In this document: piece after piece, positions 54,033-64,000 of the stretch | Layout of the letters: each line of letters begins with the position of its first letter | Numbering within the stretch: position 1 is the first letter of the stretch | Assembly: GCF_003019035.1 (NCBI RefSeq) | Contig: NZ_CP027447.1 | Length of the DNA: 64,000 nt | DNA from: Escherichia coli | Lineage (GTDB): Bacteria; Pseudomonadota; Gammaproteobacteria; Enterobacterales; Enterobacteriaceae | Direction: 5' to 3' (one strand) | Made by a program: the position numbers and the translations under genes | Notes under the pieces: generated by a model | Database searches by the model: none | What the model was told of the DNA's origin: nothing | The model's input: the letters and a program-made list of their open reading frames with translations, nothing else

Positions 54033-55703
54033 ATGAAAGGATTGATACGAAGAGTCACTGTCACCGTTGTGCTCTGGAGCGTTTGCTCCATCGCGATGGC
54101 AAAATCAACCATTACGCTGGATGGCGAACATCTCTCTATTGACCAGGCCTGGTCAATTGCATTAGGTGATAACGGCGTCAAAATCGCGTCGAACGCCATG
54201 GAGCGCATGGAAAAAAGTTATGATCTGGTGATGACTGCCGCGCATTCAGGTACGCCTGTTTATGGCTTAACCGTGGGCGTGGGGCTAAATAAAGATCAGC
54301 CCATATTTGATGCCAAAGGAAATTTAACGCCTGAGGTGATTGACGCATCGAAAAAATTTAATGCTGCCGCGCTGCGCGCCCATTCTGCGGGCGTCGGTCC
54401 GATGTTGCCGGATTATCTTGCCCGTCTCTCAATGGTGTTACGTTTAAATACTATGTTGCATGGGCAAACCGGCGCGCAGCCTTATATTGCCGAGTTGTAT
54501 GCCGAGTTTATTAATCGAGGCGTTACGCCGTTAATTCCGGCGCGGGGAAGTATCGGCGCAGCGGATATTATGCTCGCTTCACACGTTGGTCTGGTGATGA
54601 TGGGCGAGTGGAAAGCGCGGGTTAATGGCGTGGAAATGAGTGGTGGCGATGCGCTTGTGAAAGTGGGGCTTAAACCACTGGTCCCGCAGGGTAAAGATAT
54701 GCTGGCGATTTTATCGAACAACAGCGTCGGGACAGCCTACGCTATCGAAGCTGTTCGTTCGGCACGTCAGTTGCTGAATGTCAGCCCGGTGGTTTTCGCT
54801 ATGAGTCTGGAAGCGTTGAATGGTAACGTCGCACCAGTACTGCCGCAGTCAATTGCCGTGCGTCCTTTCCCGCAGTTGGCTGACTCTGCAAAAGAGATTC
54901 GCGATGCGTTAAACGGTTCATATTTATGGCATAAAGATGACGAACGTGCATTGCAAGATCCGTTATCGTTCAGAACTACGGTATATACCATTGCTGAATC
55001 AGTACGCGCTTTGCATGATGCTGAAGAGATCATAACCGTACAAATCAACAGTTCCGATGATAACCCAGCAACGGTGCTAAATGCTGACAAGGCGTATCAG
55101 GACTCCAGTCAGGTCGCGCAATATTTTGTTAAAGATGGCGCAGTCAGCGGCGGGATCTTCCCGACGGCGAACTTCGAATCGTTACCGGTTGCGCTTGCCA
55201 CTCAGCGTCTGACCGTGGCGTTGGTACATGTTTCGCATAACAGTATGCGTCGCTCGCTGCACCTGGAAGATGAGCACTTTACCGGTTTAACGCGCTTCCT
55301 GTCGGCACCCGGTAATAAAGGTCACGGCTTCGGTTCATTACATATCCCGTTTGTTGCGCTGCATGCGGAAAATGTCGATCTCGCTAACCCGGTTTCTTTC
55401 GATATTCAACCGGTAGCCGGAGGCATTGAAGATACGGGTGCCAATAACGACCACGCGGCGAGAAAATTGAAACAGGTTGTCGATAATCTGAACGTGATTT
55501 ATGGCATTGAACTGATGCATTCCGCACAGGCTCTCGATTTACGGTTGCAGGCCGATCCACAACTGGCATTAGGGAAATCCACCAAAGCAATGTTTACCGA
55601 ATACAGAAAAGTCGTGCCGTTTGTCGACCAGGATCGGGTCTTTACCCCAGATATTGCAGCTTCGCAAAAATTCTTAGAAGGATATGCTATAAATCAAAAA
55701 TAA
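54033..55703 (+). CDS. HAL/PAL-superfamily protein lacking the MIO-forming Ala-Ser-Gly triad, with predicted N-terminal signal peptide (556 aa); candidate MIO-independent lyase, not a canonical histidase
   Basis: Aligns along its length with histidine ammonia-lyase (PARGSIGAADIMLASH vs HAL GSVGASGDLAPLAH; SNNS vs NGTQ); N-terminus MKGLIRRVTVTVVLWSVCSIAMA-KS is Sec-signal-like with AxA site; AAGGAA RBS 5 nt upstream. Confidence 0.75.
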   Translation: MKGLIRRVTVTVVLWSVCSIAMAKSTITLDGEHLSIDQAWSIALGDNGVKIASNAMERMEKSYDLVMTAAHSGTPVYGLTVGVGLNKDQPIFDAKGNLTPEVIDASKKFNAAALRAHSAGVGPMLPDYLARLSMVLRLNTMLHGQTGAQPYIAELYAEFINRGVTPLIPARGSIGAADIMLASHVGLVMMGEWKARVNGVEMSGGDALVKVGLKPLVPQGKDMLAILSNNSVGTAYAIEAVRSARQLLNVSPVVFAMSLEALNGNVAPVLPQSIAVRPFPQLADSAKEIRDALNGSYLWHKDDERALQDPLSFRTTVYTIAESVRALHDAEEIITVQINSSDDNPATVLNADKAYQDSSQVAQYFVKDGAVSGGIFPTANFESLPVALATQRLTVALVHVSHNSMRRSLHLEDEHFTGLTRFLSAPGNKGHGFGSLHIPFVALHAENVDLANPVSFDIQPVAGGIEDTGANNDHAARKLKQVVDNLNVIYGIELMHSAQALDLRLQADPQLALGKSTKAMFTEYRKVVPFVDQDRVFTPDIAASQKFLEGYAINQK

Positions 55704-55973: not shown

Positions 55974-56879
55974 ATGCGAGGAAAAATACCTAAAACGGAA
56001 CTGCTGGTGACTTTTGAGGTCGTCGCACGTCATGAAAGTTATACCAGAGCGGCAGAGGAGTTAGCGTTAACCCAAAGTGCAGTATTCAGACAAGTAAGTG
56101 CGCTGGAGGAATTTTTACGTACTCCGTTATTTTCACACTCTAAAAAACGCATTTTTCTTAATGATGCAGGGAAGTATTACCTGGGGATAGTAAAAGAAAC
56201 ATTAAATAAGCTGGAACGCGATACCAATACCATTATGACCTGGCAGCCTACGGTTCAGGTTATTGAACTTGCCGTTAATCCTACTTTTAGTACCCACTGG
56301 TTAATCCCAAATTTACATGAATTCACAAAGTTACATCCCGATATTATTGTTAATATTCATTCTTTAGCTAATAACGGCGATTTTCTTAATCGGGAGTACG
56401 ATGCTGTCATTATGCGCGAAAATTTTTGCGCGCCCTGGGCGGAAGTAGAATATCTCTTTGATGAGGAGATTTTGCCGGTATGCAGCGGCAGTTTGCTTGC
56501 AATGTCCGATCAAAAACTGTCAGTGGCAGAACTGCTTACTGAGTTACCACTTCTGCATCAAAGCACCCGTATTACTGGCTGGGAAGAGTGGTTTGCTTTA
56601 TCTGGCGTTAGCAGTCCGCTGGTCAATAACGGACCACGTTTCGATTTGCTTTCAATGCTGATTGCCGCCGTGCGCTCTAATCTCGGCGTGGCGCTGTTAC
56701 CACGGTTCGCTATTCAACATGATTTGGATAGTGGCGATATGGTGATTCCCTGTGATGTGCCTATTCGTACCGGTAATCGTTTTATTATGACGTGGCAGGA
56801 AGAGAAGTCTGACTCGCCGCACTTGCAGCAATTTCGTGAATGGTTGCTGGCGAAATCGGTCGTACCGCAGGAGATGTAA
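55974..56879 (+). CDS. LysR-family transcriptional regulator (301 aa)
   Basis: N-terminal HTH (ESYTRAAEELALTQSAVFRQVSALEE) and LysR substrate-binding domain. Confidence 0.85.
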   Translation: MRGKIPKTELLVTFEVVARHESYTRAAEELALTQSAVFRQVSALEEFLRTPLFSHSKKRIFLNDAGKYYLGIVKETLNKLERDTNTIMTWQPTVQVIELAVNPTFSTHWLIPNLHEFTKLHPDIIVNIHSLANNGDFLNREYDAVIMRENFCAPWAEVEYLFDEEILPVCSGSLLAMSDQKLSVAELLTELPLLHQSTRITGWEEWFALSGVSSPLVNNGPRFDLLSMLIAAVRSNLGVALLPRFAIQHDLDSGDMVIPCDVPIRTGNRFIMTWQEEKSDSPHLQQFREWLLAKSVVPQEM

Positions 56880-56912: not shown

Positions 56913-57515
56913 TTACCAGTCGATACCCGGCTGCGCCTGAATGCCGTTATCAAAAGCATGTTTGACGGGGCGGATTTCGCTGACCGTATCCGCCATTTTT
57001 AATATCTGACTGTGGCAACCGCGTCCGGTGACAATGACACTTTGTTGTGCCGGGCGGTTTTGCAGAGAAGCGATCACTTCTTCGGTATCCAGATAATGGT
57101 AAGCCAGCATATAGGTCAGCTCATCAAGCACCACTAAGTCGTAACGCTTGTCAGCCAGCATCCGTTTGCTTTCCGACCAGACCTCTTTCGCCGCGTCGAT
57201 ATCCGCTTGCCGGTTCTGTGTCTCCCAGGTAAAACCGGTTCCCATAATATGAAACTCAACCCCCAGCGGCTGGAGAAGGTTGTATTCGCCGTTGTCCCAT
57301 TGCCCCTTGATGTACTGCGCAACCCCCACCGTTTTGCCATGACCCACCGCGCGCGTCACAGTACCAAACGCGGCAGTGGATTTCCCTTTGCCATTGCCGG
57401 TGAAAACAATCAAAATCCCTTTTTTCTCTATCGCCGCCGCGACGCGCGTATCGACCTGTTCCTTCAATTTCTGCTGGCGCTGCACATGCCGTTCAGTTGA
57501 AATTCGCGCTTCCAT
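56913..57515 (-). CDS. Cob(I)alamin adenosyltransferase, BtuR/CobA/CobO family (200 aa)
   Basis: P-loop IVFTGNGKGKSTAAFG and BtuR-like body (VLDELTYM, ITGRGC, ADTVSEIRPVKHAFD). Confidence 0.85.
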   Translation of the reverse strand: MEARISTERHVQRQQKLKEQVDTRVAAAIEKKGILIVFTGNGKGKSTAAFGTVTRAVGHGKTVGVAQYIKGQWDNGEYNLLQPLGVEFHIMGTGFTWETQNRQADIDAAKEVWSESKRMLADKRYDLVVLDELTYMLAYHYLDTEEVIASLQNRPAQQSVIVTGRGCHSQILKMADTVSEIRPVKHAFDNGIQAQPGIDW

Positions 57516-59284: not shown

Positions 59285-60565
59285 TCAGGGCAGAGCAACG
59301 TTCGATTCATTGGGTTTTAATGCTTTACCCCGACAGCCCTCGCCGAAATGTTCGCCTTCCCACCGACTCACCATCGCAGCGCCCATTGCGTTGCTCATGA
59401 CGTTTGTCGCGGAACGCCCCATATCAAGGAACGGATCAACGCCCATCAGCAAGATCAGCCCCGCTTCCGGAATATTGAACTGGTTGAGCGTGGCGGCGAT
59501 AACCACCATTGAGGCGCGTGGTACGCCAGCCATTCCTTTCGAGGTCAACATCAGGATCAACAGCATGGTGATTTGCTCACCGATGGATAAATGGATATTG
59601 CAGGCCTGGGCGATGAAAACTGTGGCGAAGGAGCAGTAGGCCATTGATCCAACGAGATTAAATGAGTAGCCAATGGGTAAGACAAAGCTGGCAATTTTGG
59701 GGGAAACGCCAAATTGCTCCAGTTTTTCAAGCGTTCCCGGAAAAGCCGCTTCAGAACTGGATGTGGTAAATGCCAGCAGGGCGGGTTCCGAAAGGGCACG
59801 GGTCAGGCGTCTGATGCAGGGGCCGACATAAACGATGGCCAGACCGATAAGCAGCACCCAAAGTAACAACATGGTGAAATAAAATTCACCCATAAAGATC
59901 CCGGCGCTCACCATAACTGCCAGTCCTCGTTCAGCAATCAATGCTGAAATAGCGGCGAATACGGTCAGGGGAGCGAAGAGCATGACGTAGCCAGTGAGCT
60001 TTAACATGGCATGTGCCAGCGAATCTAAGGCGTGAACGATGGCGCTGCCTTTCTCACCAATCGCCGTCAGGCTACAGCCGAGGAAAATTGAGAACACCAC
60101 GATTTGCAAAATTTCATTGTGCGCCATGGCATCGACAATGCTGGTGGGGAAAGCATGCGAAATAAATACTTTTAGTGTAAAGGGTTCTGACGCGACCACT
60201 CCGGTGGTTTCGGCACCGTGTGCAACAAAATTAATTCCTGTGCCTGGCATGAAGAAATTTACCGTTATCAAGCCTAAGGCAATTGACAGCAATGAGGCGC
60301 AAATAAATAAAAAGAGTGTTTTAGAAAAAATACGACCAAGGGCTTTGGCATCTCCCATTTTAGCTATACCTACCACCAGGGTAGAGACCACTAACGGAGC
60401 GATAATCATTTTTATCAGTCGTAAGAAAATCGTCGTGAATATCGATATTTCTTGCGCATAGAGTTTTGCGGTTTCCGGTGAAGCAGTGTTATTGAGCACT
60501 ACGCCGATAATCATTCCAAGTACCAGCGCCAAAAGAATCATCGTGGTTAAACTTATTTTCTTCAT
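59285..60565 (-). CDS. Dicarboxylate/amino acid:cation symporter family transporter (about 426 aa)
   Basis: Polytopic membrane protein; start MKKISLTTM with GGAGG 5 nt upstream; DAACS-like fold inferred. Confidence 0.7.
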   Translation of the reverse strand: MKKISLTTMILLALVLGMIIGVVLNNTASPETAKLYAQEISIFTTIFLRLIKMIIAPLVVSTLVVGIAKMGDAKALGRIFSKTLFLFICASLLSIALGLITVNFFMPGTGINFVAHGAETTGVVASEPFTLKVFISHAFPTSIVDAMAHNEILQIVVFSIFLGCSLTAIGEKGSAIVHALDSLAHAMLKLTGYVMLFAPLTVFAAISALIAERGLAVMVSAGIFMGEFYFTMLLLWVLLIGLAIVYVGPCIRRLTRALSEPALLAFTTSSSEAAFPGTLEKLEQFGVSPKIASFVLPIGYSFNLVGSMAYCSFATVFIAQACNIHLSIGEQITMLLILMLTSKGMAGVPRASMVVIAATLNQFNIPEAGLILLMGVDPFLDMGRSATNVMSNAMGAAMVSRWEGEHFGEGCRGKALKPNESNVALP

Positions 60566-60725
60566 TTTTTCCTCCATCAGGTGCACGGCGATAAATCAGA
60601 ATCAGGAGAAGTAGATGCCTGAATAGAGATTCAGGCATCTACCTGCTATTACAACCTTACAAATAGCTGAAGTGTTGAACTGCAATAAGTGACGGGATGT
60701 CAGTTGGCTAAAAGTATTCGGATTT

Positions 60726-61043
60726 TTACAAATCGAAACTCATATTTAATAAAGGTGCATGTTGCTGTGCACCATAGACATCATTGTCACCTACATTCCC
60801 GGAGATAATATCTCGTGGCATGACGATTTTTACTGCGTTAGAAGGATCAAACCAGACAATACGGTGAATAAAGTCAGGTTCAACATGATATAAGCGCGCA
60901 ATCAGTTCTGGGGTTAATTGCCCTGATGATTTAACTCGCTCATAGTTTTCTTTCGTTTTAAATAAAATATCTAAAACCAGTTCGTAAGGTCCGGCATTTT
61001 TCGAACGAATGACTTGCGCCAGTGAGACAATTGACTGTTTCAT
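60726..61043 (-). CDS. Small conserved protein of unknown function (105 aa), tentatively DUF4387-like
   Basis: ORF translationally coupled (4-nt overlap) to upstream unknown gene; family assignment from memory, unverified. Confidence 0.6.
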   Translation of the reverse strand: MKQSIVSLAQVIRSKNAGPYELVLDILFKTKENYERVKSSGQLTPELIARLYHVEPDFIHRIVWFDPSNAVKIVMPRDIISGNVGDNDVYGAQQHAPLLNMSFDL

Positions 61044-62410
61044 GCCTGAACTCCTTCTGGCGTCACCTGTTCAATATGGAAATCAAAACGCAGAGCGTCG
61101 TTGGCTTCAATCAGGTGATATATGGAAAATTCGTATACCGGCCCGCCCTGGATATCAGAAGGGGAGAACGGGAACGCCAGATTGCCTGCGGTAGCGATGC
61201 GGTTTTCATAGCCGTAGTGCAGCATGGTAGAGCGCACCAGCGAGCAAACGCTATTGGCAATTTCCTGGGTCGGTGCAACTACATCAAGGACAATCCCCAG
61301 CTCATGCCCGGCAGTTTGCATCGGTTCATGGTCGCCCATCACCCCATTTTTGCCGTACAGGTGGAAATTGATGCGAATGCTGTCATCGTCGAGCGACAGG
61401 TTACGTGAAACGCTGGTTTTGACTTCATCGATGATTTTATCGATCCCGGCGATCATGATCGGGTCGCGCGTTCCTGCGATGGTCAGACAGCGGAAGCCCA
61501 CCCGTCGCGCACCTTCCAGTTTCAGGGCATACGGCGTTTCTTCATGCTTAGAACCGCTGACGTACACTTCGCCGTCATTGACCGCTTTAAATGTGCAGCC
61601 TTTCAGGTTCAACACGCCGCCAGGTCCAGGCAGGAAGTAGGGATCGGATTTCTCATACAGTGTGTGTGCAGCCGCTGACGTTTCGGTAAATTTACGCTTC
61701 GGATTAAATGTCTTCAGCGTAAAGCCGTTGTCATCAATGATGCCCATCGCACAGTCAGAGCCTGAGCCGGGCGTTGCGGCGATTGCCGCGCATTCAAGGA
61801 TTTTCCCACAATGCAGCGCCAGACCTTCATCAAAGCCTTGCATGATCGGTAGCGCAGCAAAGCAGGCCGGGTCGTAAGCGCGCCCGCCCAGCACCACTTG
61901 CGCGCCTTCTTTCAGCGCCTGCTGGAAGGGTTCGATGCCCATTTGCGCGACGATATACGTACTTTCGTCAATCGCGTCGTGGGTTAACGGCGGGACAAAA
62001 TCCAGCGCCGTGATTTTGCCGTTATCCAGCGCCTGGTGGACGATGGCTTTGTCAACGTCTGCCGGGATCAACGCCATCGAGAACGAGAGGTGCTCTTCCT
62101 GGGCAATCTCATGAATTATTTCTCGGCACCACTCCAGGTGTGGAGCGGCACCAGAACCGCCGGCCGTTCCGATCACCACCGGTATATTATTTTGCACGCC
62201 TGCGGTGATCATATAGCGCAGATCGCGCTTGACCCCTGCGCGATCGGTAAACGGTTTGCCCGCTCCGAGGTAGTGGGGGCCAGGATCGGAAGAGCCTGCA
62301 TCAACGGCGATCAGATCGGGCGATTCTGCCATCGCTTTGCGGAAGCTCTCTTCAGGGAATCCATACCCGAGGATTGCCGTTGGCGATAAGACTTTAAAAG
62401 AACGAGCCAT
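61040..62410 (-). CDS. Conserved protein of unknown function (456 aa), tentatively DUF1446/AtuA-like
   Basis: Long ORF with good coding signal immediately downstream of mal; no recognisable catalytic motif; family assignment tentative. Confidence 0.65.
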   Translation of the reverse strand: MARSFKVLSPTAILGYGFPEESFRKAMAESPDLIAVDAGSSDPGPHYLGAGKPFTDRAGVKRDLRYMITAGVQNNIPVVIGTAGGSGAAPHLEWCREIIHEIAQEEHLSFSMALIPADVDKAIVHQALDNGKITALDFVPPLTHDAIDESTYIVAQMGIEPFQQALKEGAQVVLGGRAYDPACFAALPIMQGFDEGLALHCGKILECAAIAATPGSGSDCAMGIIDDNGFTLKTFNPKRKFTETSAAAHTLYEKSDPYFLPGPGGVLNLKGCTFKAVNDGEVYVSGSKHEETPYALKLEGARRVGFRCLTIAGTRDPIMIAGIDKIIDEVKTSVSRNLSLDDDSIRINFHLYGKNGVMGDHEPMQTAGHELGIVLDVVAPTQEIANSVCSLVRSTMLHYGYENRIATAGNLAFPFSPSDIQGGPVYEFSIYHLIEANDALRFDFHIEQVTPEGVQA

Positions 62411-62413
62411 TTG

Positions 62414-63655
62414 TTAATCCTTAGCCTGCAACAGCGCGATAGTACGATTCATTTCGTTGAAGACGATATCGAGGCCTTCGTCAAAGCCCATCCCTGGCTT
62501 TACCAGCATACGCATAGGGCGAGCGGCAAGGGCGACGTGGACACAGGTGCGGGCACTGACATCAGTTTCATTGCAGGTGCCGCCCTGGTACGCTTCCATG
62601 CTGTGGCTGTTGCAGTAAAGAACCGCATCGACGATGTTGTGAATACTGCCCAGATCCGGGGTTTTGATTTGCACCATGTGGCAACTGGCGGCATCAGTGA
62701 AATCAACAATATCCTGGTAGGTGTTACACCATTCATCGGCCACAATTTTCACGCCGGAACCGAGGCGCGTCAGCTCTTTGGTAATCGCGGTCAGCAGGCG
62801 AATTTGATCGGGCTTGTTACCGGCATCGACCGGCCCTTCAATGTAGAGCGGCAGGCCTTGCGCTTCTTTTTCCAGGCTGGCGATGTATTGCGCACAGCGA
62901 AGCGGATCCATATCGAAGATCAGGCCGATAGTGCCGTATACATCGATGTGCAGGGTTGGGTGGTAGCGTGCGCTGGTGCGCTTGCTCAGAATACGATCCG
63001 ACAGCCAGCGGACATATTCGCGCAGTTTTTCACCTTTAAAGCCCAGTTTCTCTTCGACGTTATTAATCAGTGCATGGGGCAGCACGTCGATGCCCTTAAG
63101 GATCATCTTATCGACGGCGATATATCGATCGTCCCCGCTCTGACCAAATAATGGAATGGATTCCGCCACGCGTGGCAACTGCCATTCATCGCAAACTACT
63201 TCAGTTTTCAGACGGCCGGTTGCCAGCGCGGTAGCATCAAGCAGCGCCTGTGATAATCCGTAGCGCACGGCGGTATGTAGCAAGTTGCCGTCAATACGCA
63301 ATTTGTCGAAGAAACGGGCATTCGGCAGGAAAGCATCCACATCGCGGCCTACCAGTAATGGCTTGATATGGTCGTTGAGGAACGGAATAAAGTGCTCTGC
63401 GAGGAACAGTGGATCGCGACCACCTGCCCCGGAATACTGTACGGCAGCACAGTCACCTACGGCGACCGCGCCGTTTTCCAGAATCAACTGTACCGATACG
63501 CACTCCCCGGCCTGACGTACGGCGTTAAACCCCTGTGTTACTGGCTCCCCGGTATAAAAAAAGCCGTCGTGACCCGCTCCGTTTTTTATCGCCTGCTGGT
63601 CATCGAAATAGAATGAGGAGTAGCCAGCGGTGAACAGGGCCTGTTTTATTTTCAT
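62414..63655 (-). CDS. mal: 3-methylaspartate ammonia-lyase (413 aa)
   Basis: Enolase-superfamily MAL motifs: AGHDGF, CAAVQYSGAGGRDPLF, SGDDRY, VLPHALINNVEEKLG, ADEWCNT, MVQIKTPDLG, GGTCNET, KPGMGFDEG. Confidence 0.9.
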   Translation of the reverse strand: MKIKQALFTAGYSSFYFDDQQAIKNGAGHDGFFYTGEPVTQGFNAVRQAGECVSVQLILENGAVAVGDCAAVQYSGAGGRDPLFLAEHFIPFLNDHIKPLLVGRDVDAFLPNARFFDKLRIDGNLLHTAVRYGLSQALLDATALATGRLKTEVVCDEWQLPRVAESIPLFGQSGDDRYIAVDKMILKGIDVLPHALINNVEEKLGFKGEKLREYVRWLSDRILSKRTSARYHPTLHIDVYGTIGLIFDMDPLRCAQYIASLEKEAQGLPLYIEGPVDAGNKPDQIRLLTAITKELTRLGSGVKIVADEWCNTYQDIVDFTDAASCHMVQIKTPDLGSIHNIVDAVLYCNSHSMEAYQGGTCNETDVSARTCVHVALAARPMRMLVKPGMGFDEGLDIVFNEMNRTIALLQAKD

Positions 63656-64000
63656 TATGGTCTTCCTATTAATTTACTGTGGGATACAGCATTGATGTCA
63701 TCTACAACCATCTGGAATGTCGGTTGGCGTCCTTCAAAGCGTGCGCGTTCCGCAACGTAATCGTGGTGGAGGTCGAGAATATCTTTTGGCAATGGAACGG
63801 CTCCGGCTTCCAGTACGCGTATCGCGCCGGTGTTGTCACGGACCGGAAGAATTTTGCCCGCGTTGCAGGCGGCTGGCGCAAACGGCACATCCAGTACGCC
63901 CGCTTCAAATGCTAGCACCGTACCGCGCGCAATATCACCATTACCCAGTTCGAACACTTTATTCAGTACCGCGCGAACCTCGCTCTTAATCAGTTCAATT
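63655..64000 (-). CDS. glmE: Glutamate mutase E (large, B12-dependent) subunit, C-terminal part only; gene continues beyond window
   Basis: C-terminal sequence ...FELGNGDIARGTVLAFEAGVLDVPFAPAACNAGKILPVRDNTGAIRVLEAGAVPLP...FEGRQPTFQMVVDDINAVSHSKLIGRP resembles clostridial GlmE/MutE C-terminus; stop overlaps mal start by 1 nt. Confidence 0.8.
   Translation of the reverse strand, partial: IELIKSEVRAVLNKVFELGNGDIARGTVLAFEAGVLDVPFAPAACNAGKILPVRDNTGAIRVLEAGAVPLPKDILDLHHDYVAERARFEGRQPTFQMVVDDINAVSHSKLIGRP

Follow-up and report, generated by a model that had tools for sequence, protein, structure and literature searches.

The mesaconase FumD of E. coli O157:H7 has been described as the enzyme that makes (S)-citramalate (Kronen and Berg 2015; PMC4682846). 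According to the same study, citrate lyase, isocitrate lyase and methylisocitrate lyase of E. coli do not cleave (S)-citramalate, and for enterobacteria with the glutamate mutase/methylaspartase cluster the question of what becomes of this compound was expressly left open in 2015 (PMC4682846). That paper also reported that in enterobacteria and Dictyoglomus a DUF1446 gene lies downstream of mal, and remarked that this gene is often mislabelled as methylaspartase “for unknown reason” (PMC4682846).

Two PDB entries released in October 2025 bear on this gap. Their titles are “Citramalate lyase - AMPPNP - citramalate complex” (9ERQ) and “Citramalate lyase - ADP - pyruvate complex” (9EVF), and their chains are named “Citramalate lyase, subunit A (cmlA)” and “subunit B (cmlB)”. 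Each entry contains both subunits, in two copies each. Since the titles name citramalate and pyruvate, substrate and product are taken to be bound in the crystals. In addition, a preprint of January 2026 reported that cmlAB of Raoultella planticola (source: Berg laboratory), expressed with one RBS per subunit, cleaves citramalate into pyruvate and acetate in vivo. In E. coli strains without the rest of the cluster, the plasmid was required both for growth on mesaconate and for label to reach acetyl-CoA. Our literature search yielded the 2015 FumD paper and this preprint, and no primary paper on CmlAB with enzyme kinetics was found.

The locus studied here lies near the end of a 64,000-nucleotide stretch of E. 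coli DNA, referred to as the window. Two adjacent ORFs of 456 and 105 aa were analysed. Both are real genes, annotated by RefSeq in the 100%-identical chromosome of E. coli SCU-301, and they are named here after the enzyme to which they are compared:

61040..62410, minus strand: cmlA, probable citramalate lyase large subunit, 456 aa, AtuA/DUF1446 family (PF07287)
60726..61043, minus strand: cmlB, probable citramalate lyase small subunit, 105 aa, DUF4387 (PF14330)

The junctions were read directly in the sequence. The stop codon of cmlA and the start codon of cmlB share a 4-nt ATGA overlap, and a GAAGGAG Shine-Dalgarno site is located 8 nt upstream of cmlB, inside the 3' end of cmlA. On the other side, cmlA is directly downstream of mal, the AAGGA Shine-Dalgarno site that precedes it being placed within the last mal codons. 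This arrangement bears out the preliminary description, in which the two genes were regarded as co-directional and translationally coupled with a 4-nt overlap. The gap to mal, given there as 4 bp, had to be corrected, as the spacer between the mal TAA stop and the cmlA ATG was found to be 3 nt (CAA). Translational coupling through the ATGA overlap would fit the joint production of CmlA and CmlB for a heteromeric enzyme.

In the Pfam search the cmlA product gave a distant match to AtuA (PF07287; i-E 5.1e-19, 68.8 bits), which covered residues 63-394 and positions 61-397 of the 437 of the model. The cmlB product matched DUF4387 (PF14330; i-E 2.9e-39) over model positions 2-97 of 98. No NCBIfam model matching CmlA or CmlB was found. 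RefSeq names the pair “AtuA family protein” and “DUF4387 domain-containing protein”, so that the profile search and the database agree with the AtuA/DUF1446-like and DUF4387-like families to which the two proteins had tentatively been allocated. The best 120 DUF4387 homologues were all stand-alone proteins of about 105 aa, and no CmlA-CmlB fusion was present among them.

In the comparison with the PDB, CmlA is a full-length match to chain A of 9ERQ and 9EVF (E 1.3e-292, residues 1-456 of 456, 92.3% identity), and CmlB is a full-length match to chain B of the same entries (E 5.2e-57, residues 1-104 of 105, 84.6% identity over 104). The crystallised enzyme and the E. coli pair differ only in host species and in about 8-15% of their residues. 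Fold comparison showed that the pair in the window shares the three-dimensional fold of the solved CmlAB enzyme. CmlA is built of an N-terminal half of alternating beta and alpha elements and a ferredoxin-like C-terminal part. An alignment of 25 homologues displayed many invariant charged and glycine-rich positions in CmlA, for example in DAGSxDPGP (37-45), GTAGGSGA (81-88), GRAYDP (176-181) and HCGKILEC (200-207).

Among the database records of CmlA homologues (e.g. P0002 from Salmonella, P0059 from Riflebacteria and P0072 from Lentisphaerae), several carry the name “3-methylaspartate ammonia-lyase”, which is a propagated misannotation. Other records read “acyclic terpene utilization AtuA family protein”, and none of the records examined used the name “citramalate lyase”. 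The possibility that CmlA itself is a methylaspartate ammonia-lyase was rejected: AtuA is its sole Pfam match, it has no enolase-superfamily methylaspartase domain, and the true mal is the upstream gene.

The pair is embedded in a cluster with the following features in the window:

63655..64000, minus strand: glmE, glutamate mutase subunit E (3' part, cut by the window end)
62414..63655, minus strand: mal, methylaspartate ammonia-lyase, 413 aa (RefSeq annotation)
60610..60643, minus-strand transcript: 15-bp stem-loop within the 139-nt spacer between cmlB and the symporter gene
59285..60565, minus strand: dicarboxylate/amino acid:cation symporter, GltP-like (sequence and RefSeq; Kronen and Berg 2015, Fig. 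5 legend, PMC4682846)
57525..59177, minus strand: fumD, class I fumarase/mesaconase, the maker of (S)-citramalate
56913..57515, minus strand: cobO, cob(I)yrinic acid a,c-diamide adenosyltransferase, which supplies adenosylcobalamin for glutamate mutase
55974..56879, plus strand: LysR-type regulator, divergently oriented and putatively controlling the cluster (LTTR in Fig. 5 of PMC4682846)

One nucleotide is shared between the glmE stop and the mal start (TAATG). The genes glmL and glmS lie beyond the window end, and the order in SCU-301 (locus L001) is glmS-glmL-glmE-mal-cmlA-cmlB-symporter-fumD-cobO. With the symporter as an additional member, this operon would represent a complete methylaspartate pathway. 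Glutamate would be converted into methylaspartate by the B12-dependent mutase, methylaspartate into mesaconate by Mal and mesaconate into (S)-citramalate by FumD, after which CmlAB would cleave (S)-citramalate into pyruvate and acetate, a reaction taken from the PDB names and the preprint. The GltP-like symporter is likely the glutamate importer of the cluster.

The stem-loop behind cmlB is near-perfect, with 14 Watson-Crick pairs and one G-U pair, and no clear U-tract follows it. The spacer RNA was calculated to fold at -38.5 kcal/mol (z = -4.66 versus shuffles), and a terminator scan caught the stem-loop only in part. It may be an intercistronic processing or stabilising element, or a weak terminator/attenuator, rather than a full terminator.

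In the SCU-301 chromosome the hut and glutamate-fermentation island sits between hut/suc genes and cydAB. In E. coli K-12 this position is occupied by other genes (mngR-mngAB). The hut genes beside the cluster would provide it with glutamate. A 556-aa ammonia-lyase of the HAL/PAL/TAL family is encoded at 54033-55703 on the plus strand, adjacent to hutI and hutG, and its N-terminus resembles a signal peptide (MKGLIRRVTVTVVLWSVCSIAMAKS...). Histidine ammonia-lyase is normally cytoplasmic, and such an N-terminus is unusual for one. Two hypothetical proteins of 140 and 314 aa are encoded between glmS and cydA, just outside the window (L001:16904-18351). The stretch from about 1 to 50600 of the window harbours an ISAs1 transposase fragment and a frameshifted RHS element accompanied by immunity-protein genes. 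An anti-phage or mobile-element role for the pair was discarded, as its neighbourhood is purely metabolic and PADLOC gave no match.

Co-conservation was evaluated in a genome scan with one genome per species, in which 80 loci with CmlA homologues (55-93% identity) were recovered. They belong to Enterobacterales, Betaproteobacteria, Alphaproteobacteria, Riflebacteria, Aminicenantes/Acidobacteriota, Lentisphaerae, Spirochaetes, Fibrobacteres, Chloroflexi, Desulfobacterota, Myxococcota and several Bacillota families. Neighbours were searched by tblastn with the E. coli proteins, and adjacency was counted where the locus had room for it. A cmlB homologue was found directly downstream of cmlA on the same strand in all 78 loci with room, and a mal homologue directly upstream on the same strand in 64 of 72. 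Among the 80 loci, homologues of glmE were present in 62, of glmS in 55, of glmL in 54 and of the class I fumarase gene fumD in 36. The co-occurrence with glmE and mal, which had been proposed as a check on the pair, is thus conserved across phyla. The symporter followed cmlB in 24 of the 80 loci and the LysR regulator was found in 19; both of them, as well as cobO, were largely confined to the enterobacterial loci.

Eight of the 72 loci had no mal directly upstream. In one of these (L070) mal is placed about 3 kb further upstream. In the recovered stretches of the others, no mal or glm homologue was detected: these are three Shewanella loci (L059, L073, L079), Accumulibacter (L027), Desulfospira (L064), Haliea (L074) and a deltaproteobacterial MAG (L068). 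In Shewanella, cmlAB stands alone between hrpA and a metalloprotease gene. In the deltaproteobacterial MAG a two-subunit Fe-S fumarase/mesaconase is encoded after cmlB, and in the Haliea MAG cmlAB is divergent from an acyl-CoA carboxyltransferase cluster with a CitE-like gene. The existence of cmlAB loci without mal means that the pair is not restricted to glutamate fermentation, and in such settings it may plausibly serve the use of mesaconate or citramalate. The loci devoid of both mal and glm suggest uses beyond glutamate fermentation, or paralogous substrates.

Both subunit sequences, the fold, the gene pairing and the genomic context place the pair with CmlAB. The two genes very probably encode CmlA and CmlB, a two-subunit citramalate lyase that would need neither CoA nor an acyl carrier protein. 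The reaction is assigned on the basis of the PDB chain names, the entry titles with their ligands and one preprint in which the enzyme was used as a tool. The near-identity to the crystallised enzyme, the matching fold, the strict A-B pairing and the synteny with mal and glm together indicate that CmlAB would fill the missing citramalate lyase step. Of the two roles that the preliminary description had offered, citramalate processing or mutase maintenance, the former is supported by the match to the citramalate lyase chains and nothing was found in favour of the latter. Its view of the genes as being of unknown function, in charge of an uncharacterised step, no longer holds in the light of the substrate and product structures of October 2025 and the preprint of January 2026. 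The function of CmlAB is already in the public record and the gene beside mal was published in 2015, so the finding is not new.

The presence of AMPPNP and ADP in the crystals deserves attention. A simple aldol-type lyase does not need a nucleotide, and the stoichiometry “citramalate to pyruvate + acetate” may therefore be incomplete. One explanation would be an ATP-dependent lyase, in which the C4 carboxylate is phosphorylated and C-C cleavage yields pyruvate and acetyl phosphate with release of ADP. The acyl phosphate would stabilise the enolate as the thioester does in CitDEF or citramalyl-CoA lyase, and acetate would appear only after acetate kinase had regenerated ATP. We consider this unlikely. 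The preprint gives pyruvate and acetate as the products and calls the CmlAB module CoA-independent, and it never mentions ATP or acetyl phosphate. Moreover, its evolved strains up-regulated the acetate-activating enzyme Acs, which would be needless if acetyl phosphate fed Pta directly. The fold similarities that could speak for such a mechanism were far below homology significance, and neither ackA nor pta is a recurrent neighbour among the cmlAB loci. The favoured interpretation, by a clear preference, is that the nucleotide acts as an effector or a structural cofactor and is not a consumed substrate.

A further component could be present outside the enterobacteria. In 45 of 57 non-enterobacterial loci cmlB is followed, usually within 30 nt, by a gene of about 310 aa, examples of which are:

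L060:7517-8437, plus strand: third gene
L031:11694-12647: third gene
L037:11689-12636: third gene
L053:6482-7489: third gene

Its product carries a Walker A motif (GxEGSGKST). It gave no NCBIfam match and no significant Pfam match, and its sequence matches in the PDB were only at the level of the P-loop. In the AF2 model a ThrRS/AlaX-editing-like domain is joined to a TsaE/YjeE-like ATPase domain, and there are invariant His and Cys residues. The third gene may encode a so far undescribed accessory component of the lyase; the lyase itself binds an adenine nucleotide. No enterobacterial locus carries the gene, nor does the window, and R. planticola cmlAB works without it (January 2026 preprint).

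These elements can be combined in a broader proposal, in which the nucleotide is a co-substrate, analogous cleavages are catalysed throughout the family and the third gene provides a further component that E. coli lacks. If this were true, CmlAB would be a C-C lyase with a new fold, coupled to ATP and releasing acetyl phosphate. Members of the wider AtuA/DUF1446 and DUF4387 family, among them Pseudomonas AtuA and the DUF1446 proteins of plants and fungi, would then perform acetate-releasing cleavage of tertiary beta-hydroxy acids. This combination appears doubtful, and CmlAB is more probably a lyase that binds the nucleotide without consuming it.

It is quite improbable that the genes in E. 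coli are cryptic or in decay and no longer functional while their orthologues function. The cluster was not expressed in O157:H7, which did not grow on glutamate (Kronen and Berg 2015; PMC4682846), and it is accessory, the locus being found in 1125 of 5426 complete E. coli genomes (~21%). Against decay, both ORFs are full length and free of frameshifts, their Shine-Dalgarno sites and coupling are intact, and the columns invariant across the 25 homologues are, by construction, all kept in the window protein. Furthermore, 1126 records show at least 95% identity at this locus, and 1122 of them cover at least 80% of the query. We infer that the E. coli CmlAB copy is active.

The weakest alternative, that the pair is an accessory factor (for mutase or B12 maintenance, or related to methylaspartase) and not a citramalate enzyme, fits its tight linkage to glmSLE and mal and the methylaspartase label of some database records, but can be set aside as hardly credible, since the crystals hold citramalate and pyruvate under the name of citramalate lyase, the enzyme is functional in E. 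coli strains devoid of the mutase and mal (2026 preprint), cmlAB exists without glm or mal and in L068 is accompanied by the two-subunit fumarase/mesaconase only, mutase reactivation is already covered by GlmL, and the Pfam search shows no methylaspartase domain.

As a citramalate lyase, CmlAB would close the gap left in 2015 (PMC4682846). With this step filled, the B12-dependent route from glutamate to pyruvate, acetate and ammonia would be complete in about a fifth of the complete E. coli genomes and in many other gut Enterobacterales. In practice, the assignment matters for annotation: the family names “AtuA family” and “DUF4387” are still in use in RefSeq, NCBIfam and Pfam, and some records say methylaspartase, so genome-scale models miss the step. 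CmlAB is, in addition, a CoA-free citramalate lyase already in use in synthetic C1 pathways, and the result bears on the large AtuA/DUF1446 family.

The namesake of that family is AtuA of the acyclic terpene utilisation (atu) cluster of Pseudomonas, to which CmlA is related by the distant PF07287 match described above. As far as we know, AtuA itself has yet to be assigned a function. The Atu pathway includes the release of acetate from 3-hydroxy-3-isohexenylglutaryl-CoA, a tertiary beta-hydroxy acid, and this step is formally equivalent to citramalate cleavage. Unlike that of the atu cluster, the substrate of CmlA would be a free C5 dicarboxylate. No atu or liu genes (e.g. geranyl-CoA carboxylase) were found near cmlAB in the window, where the neighbours are glm, mal, fumD, the symporter gene, cobO and hut. 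A second comparison can be made with (S)-citramalyl-CoA lyase of the CitE-HpcH type, which belongs to the route of mesaconate or itaconate degradation in other bacteria (PMC4682846). Like CmlAB, it forms pyruvate and a C2 unit from the citramalate skeleton; unlike CmlAB, it depends on a CoA-transferase for CoA activation and is a member of an unrelated family, with no homologue in the window.

A functional counterpart is the classical citramalate lyase (EC 4.1.3.22) of Clostridium tetanomorphum, a CitDEF-like enzyme with an acyl carrier protein that catalyses the same overall reaction at the same position at the end of the pathway (PMC4682846). The preliminary description had seen no citramalate lyase in this part of the cluster and, as far as the classical type is concerned, this was correct: tblastn with E. 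coli K-12 CitC/D/E/F/X/G detected no CitDEF-type lyase in the 64-kb window. The same proteins had no homologue next to cmlAB in 79 of the 80 loci, and neither CitD nor CitF was found within 10 kb in any of them; the sole CitE-like match was one weak ORF at a distance of 9 kb in the Haliea MAG. The lack of CitDEF genes near cmlAB fits a non-orthologous replacement of the CitDEF-type citramalate lyase. CmlAB has no sequence relationship to the classical enzyme and consists of two subunits instead of three. It is free of genes for the phosphoribosyl-dephospho-CoA prosthetic group and for CitC/X/G activation, and it binds an adenine nucleotide. In the methylaspartate pathway of E. coli, CmlAB would stand in the place that the three-subunit CitDEF-like citramalate lyase occupies in clostridia.
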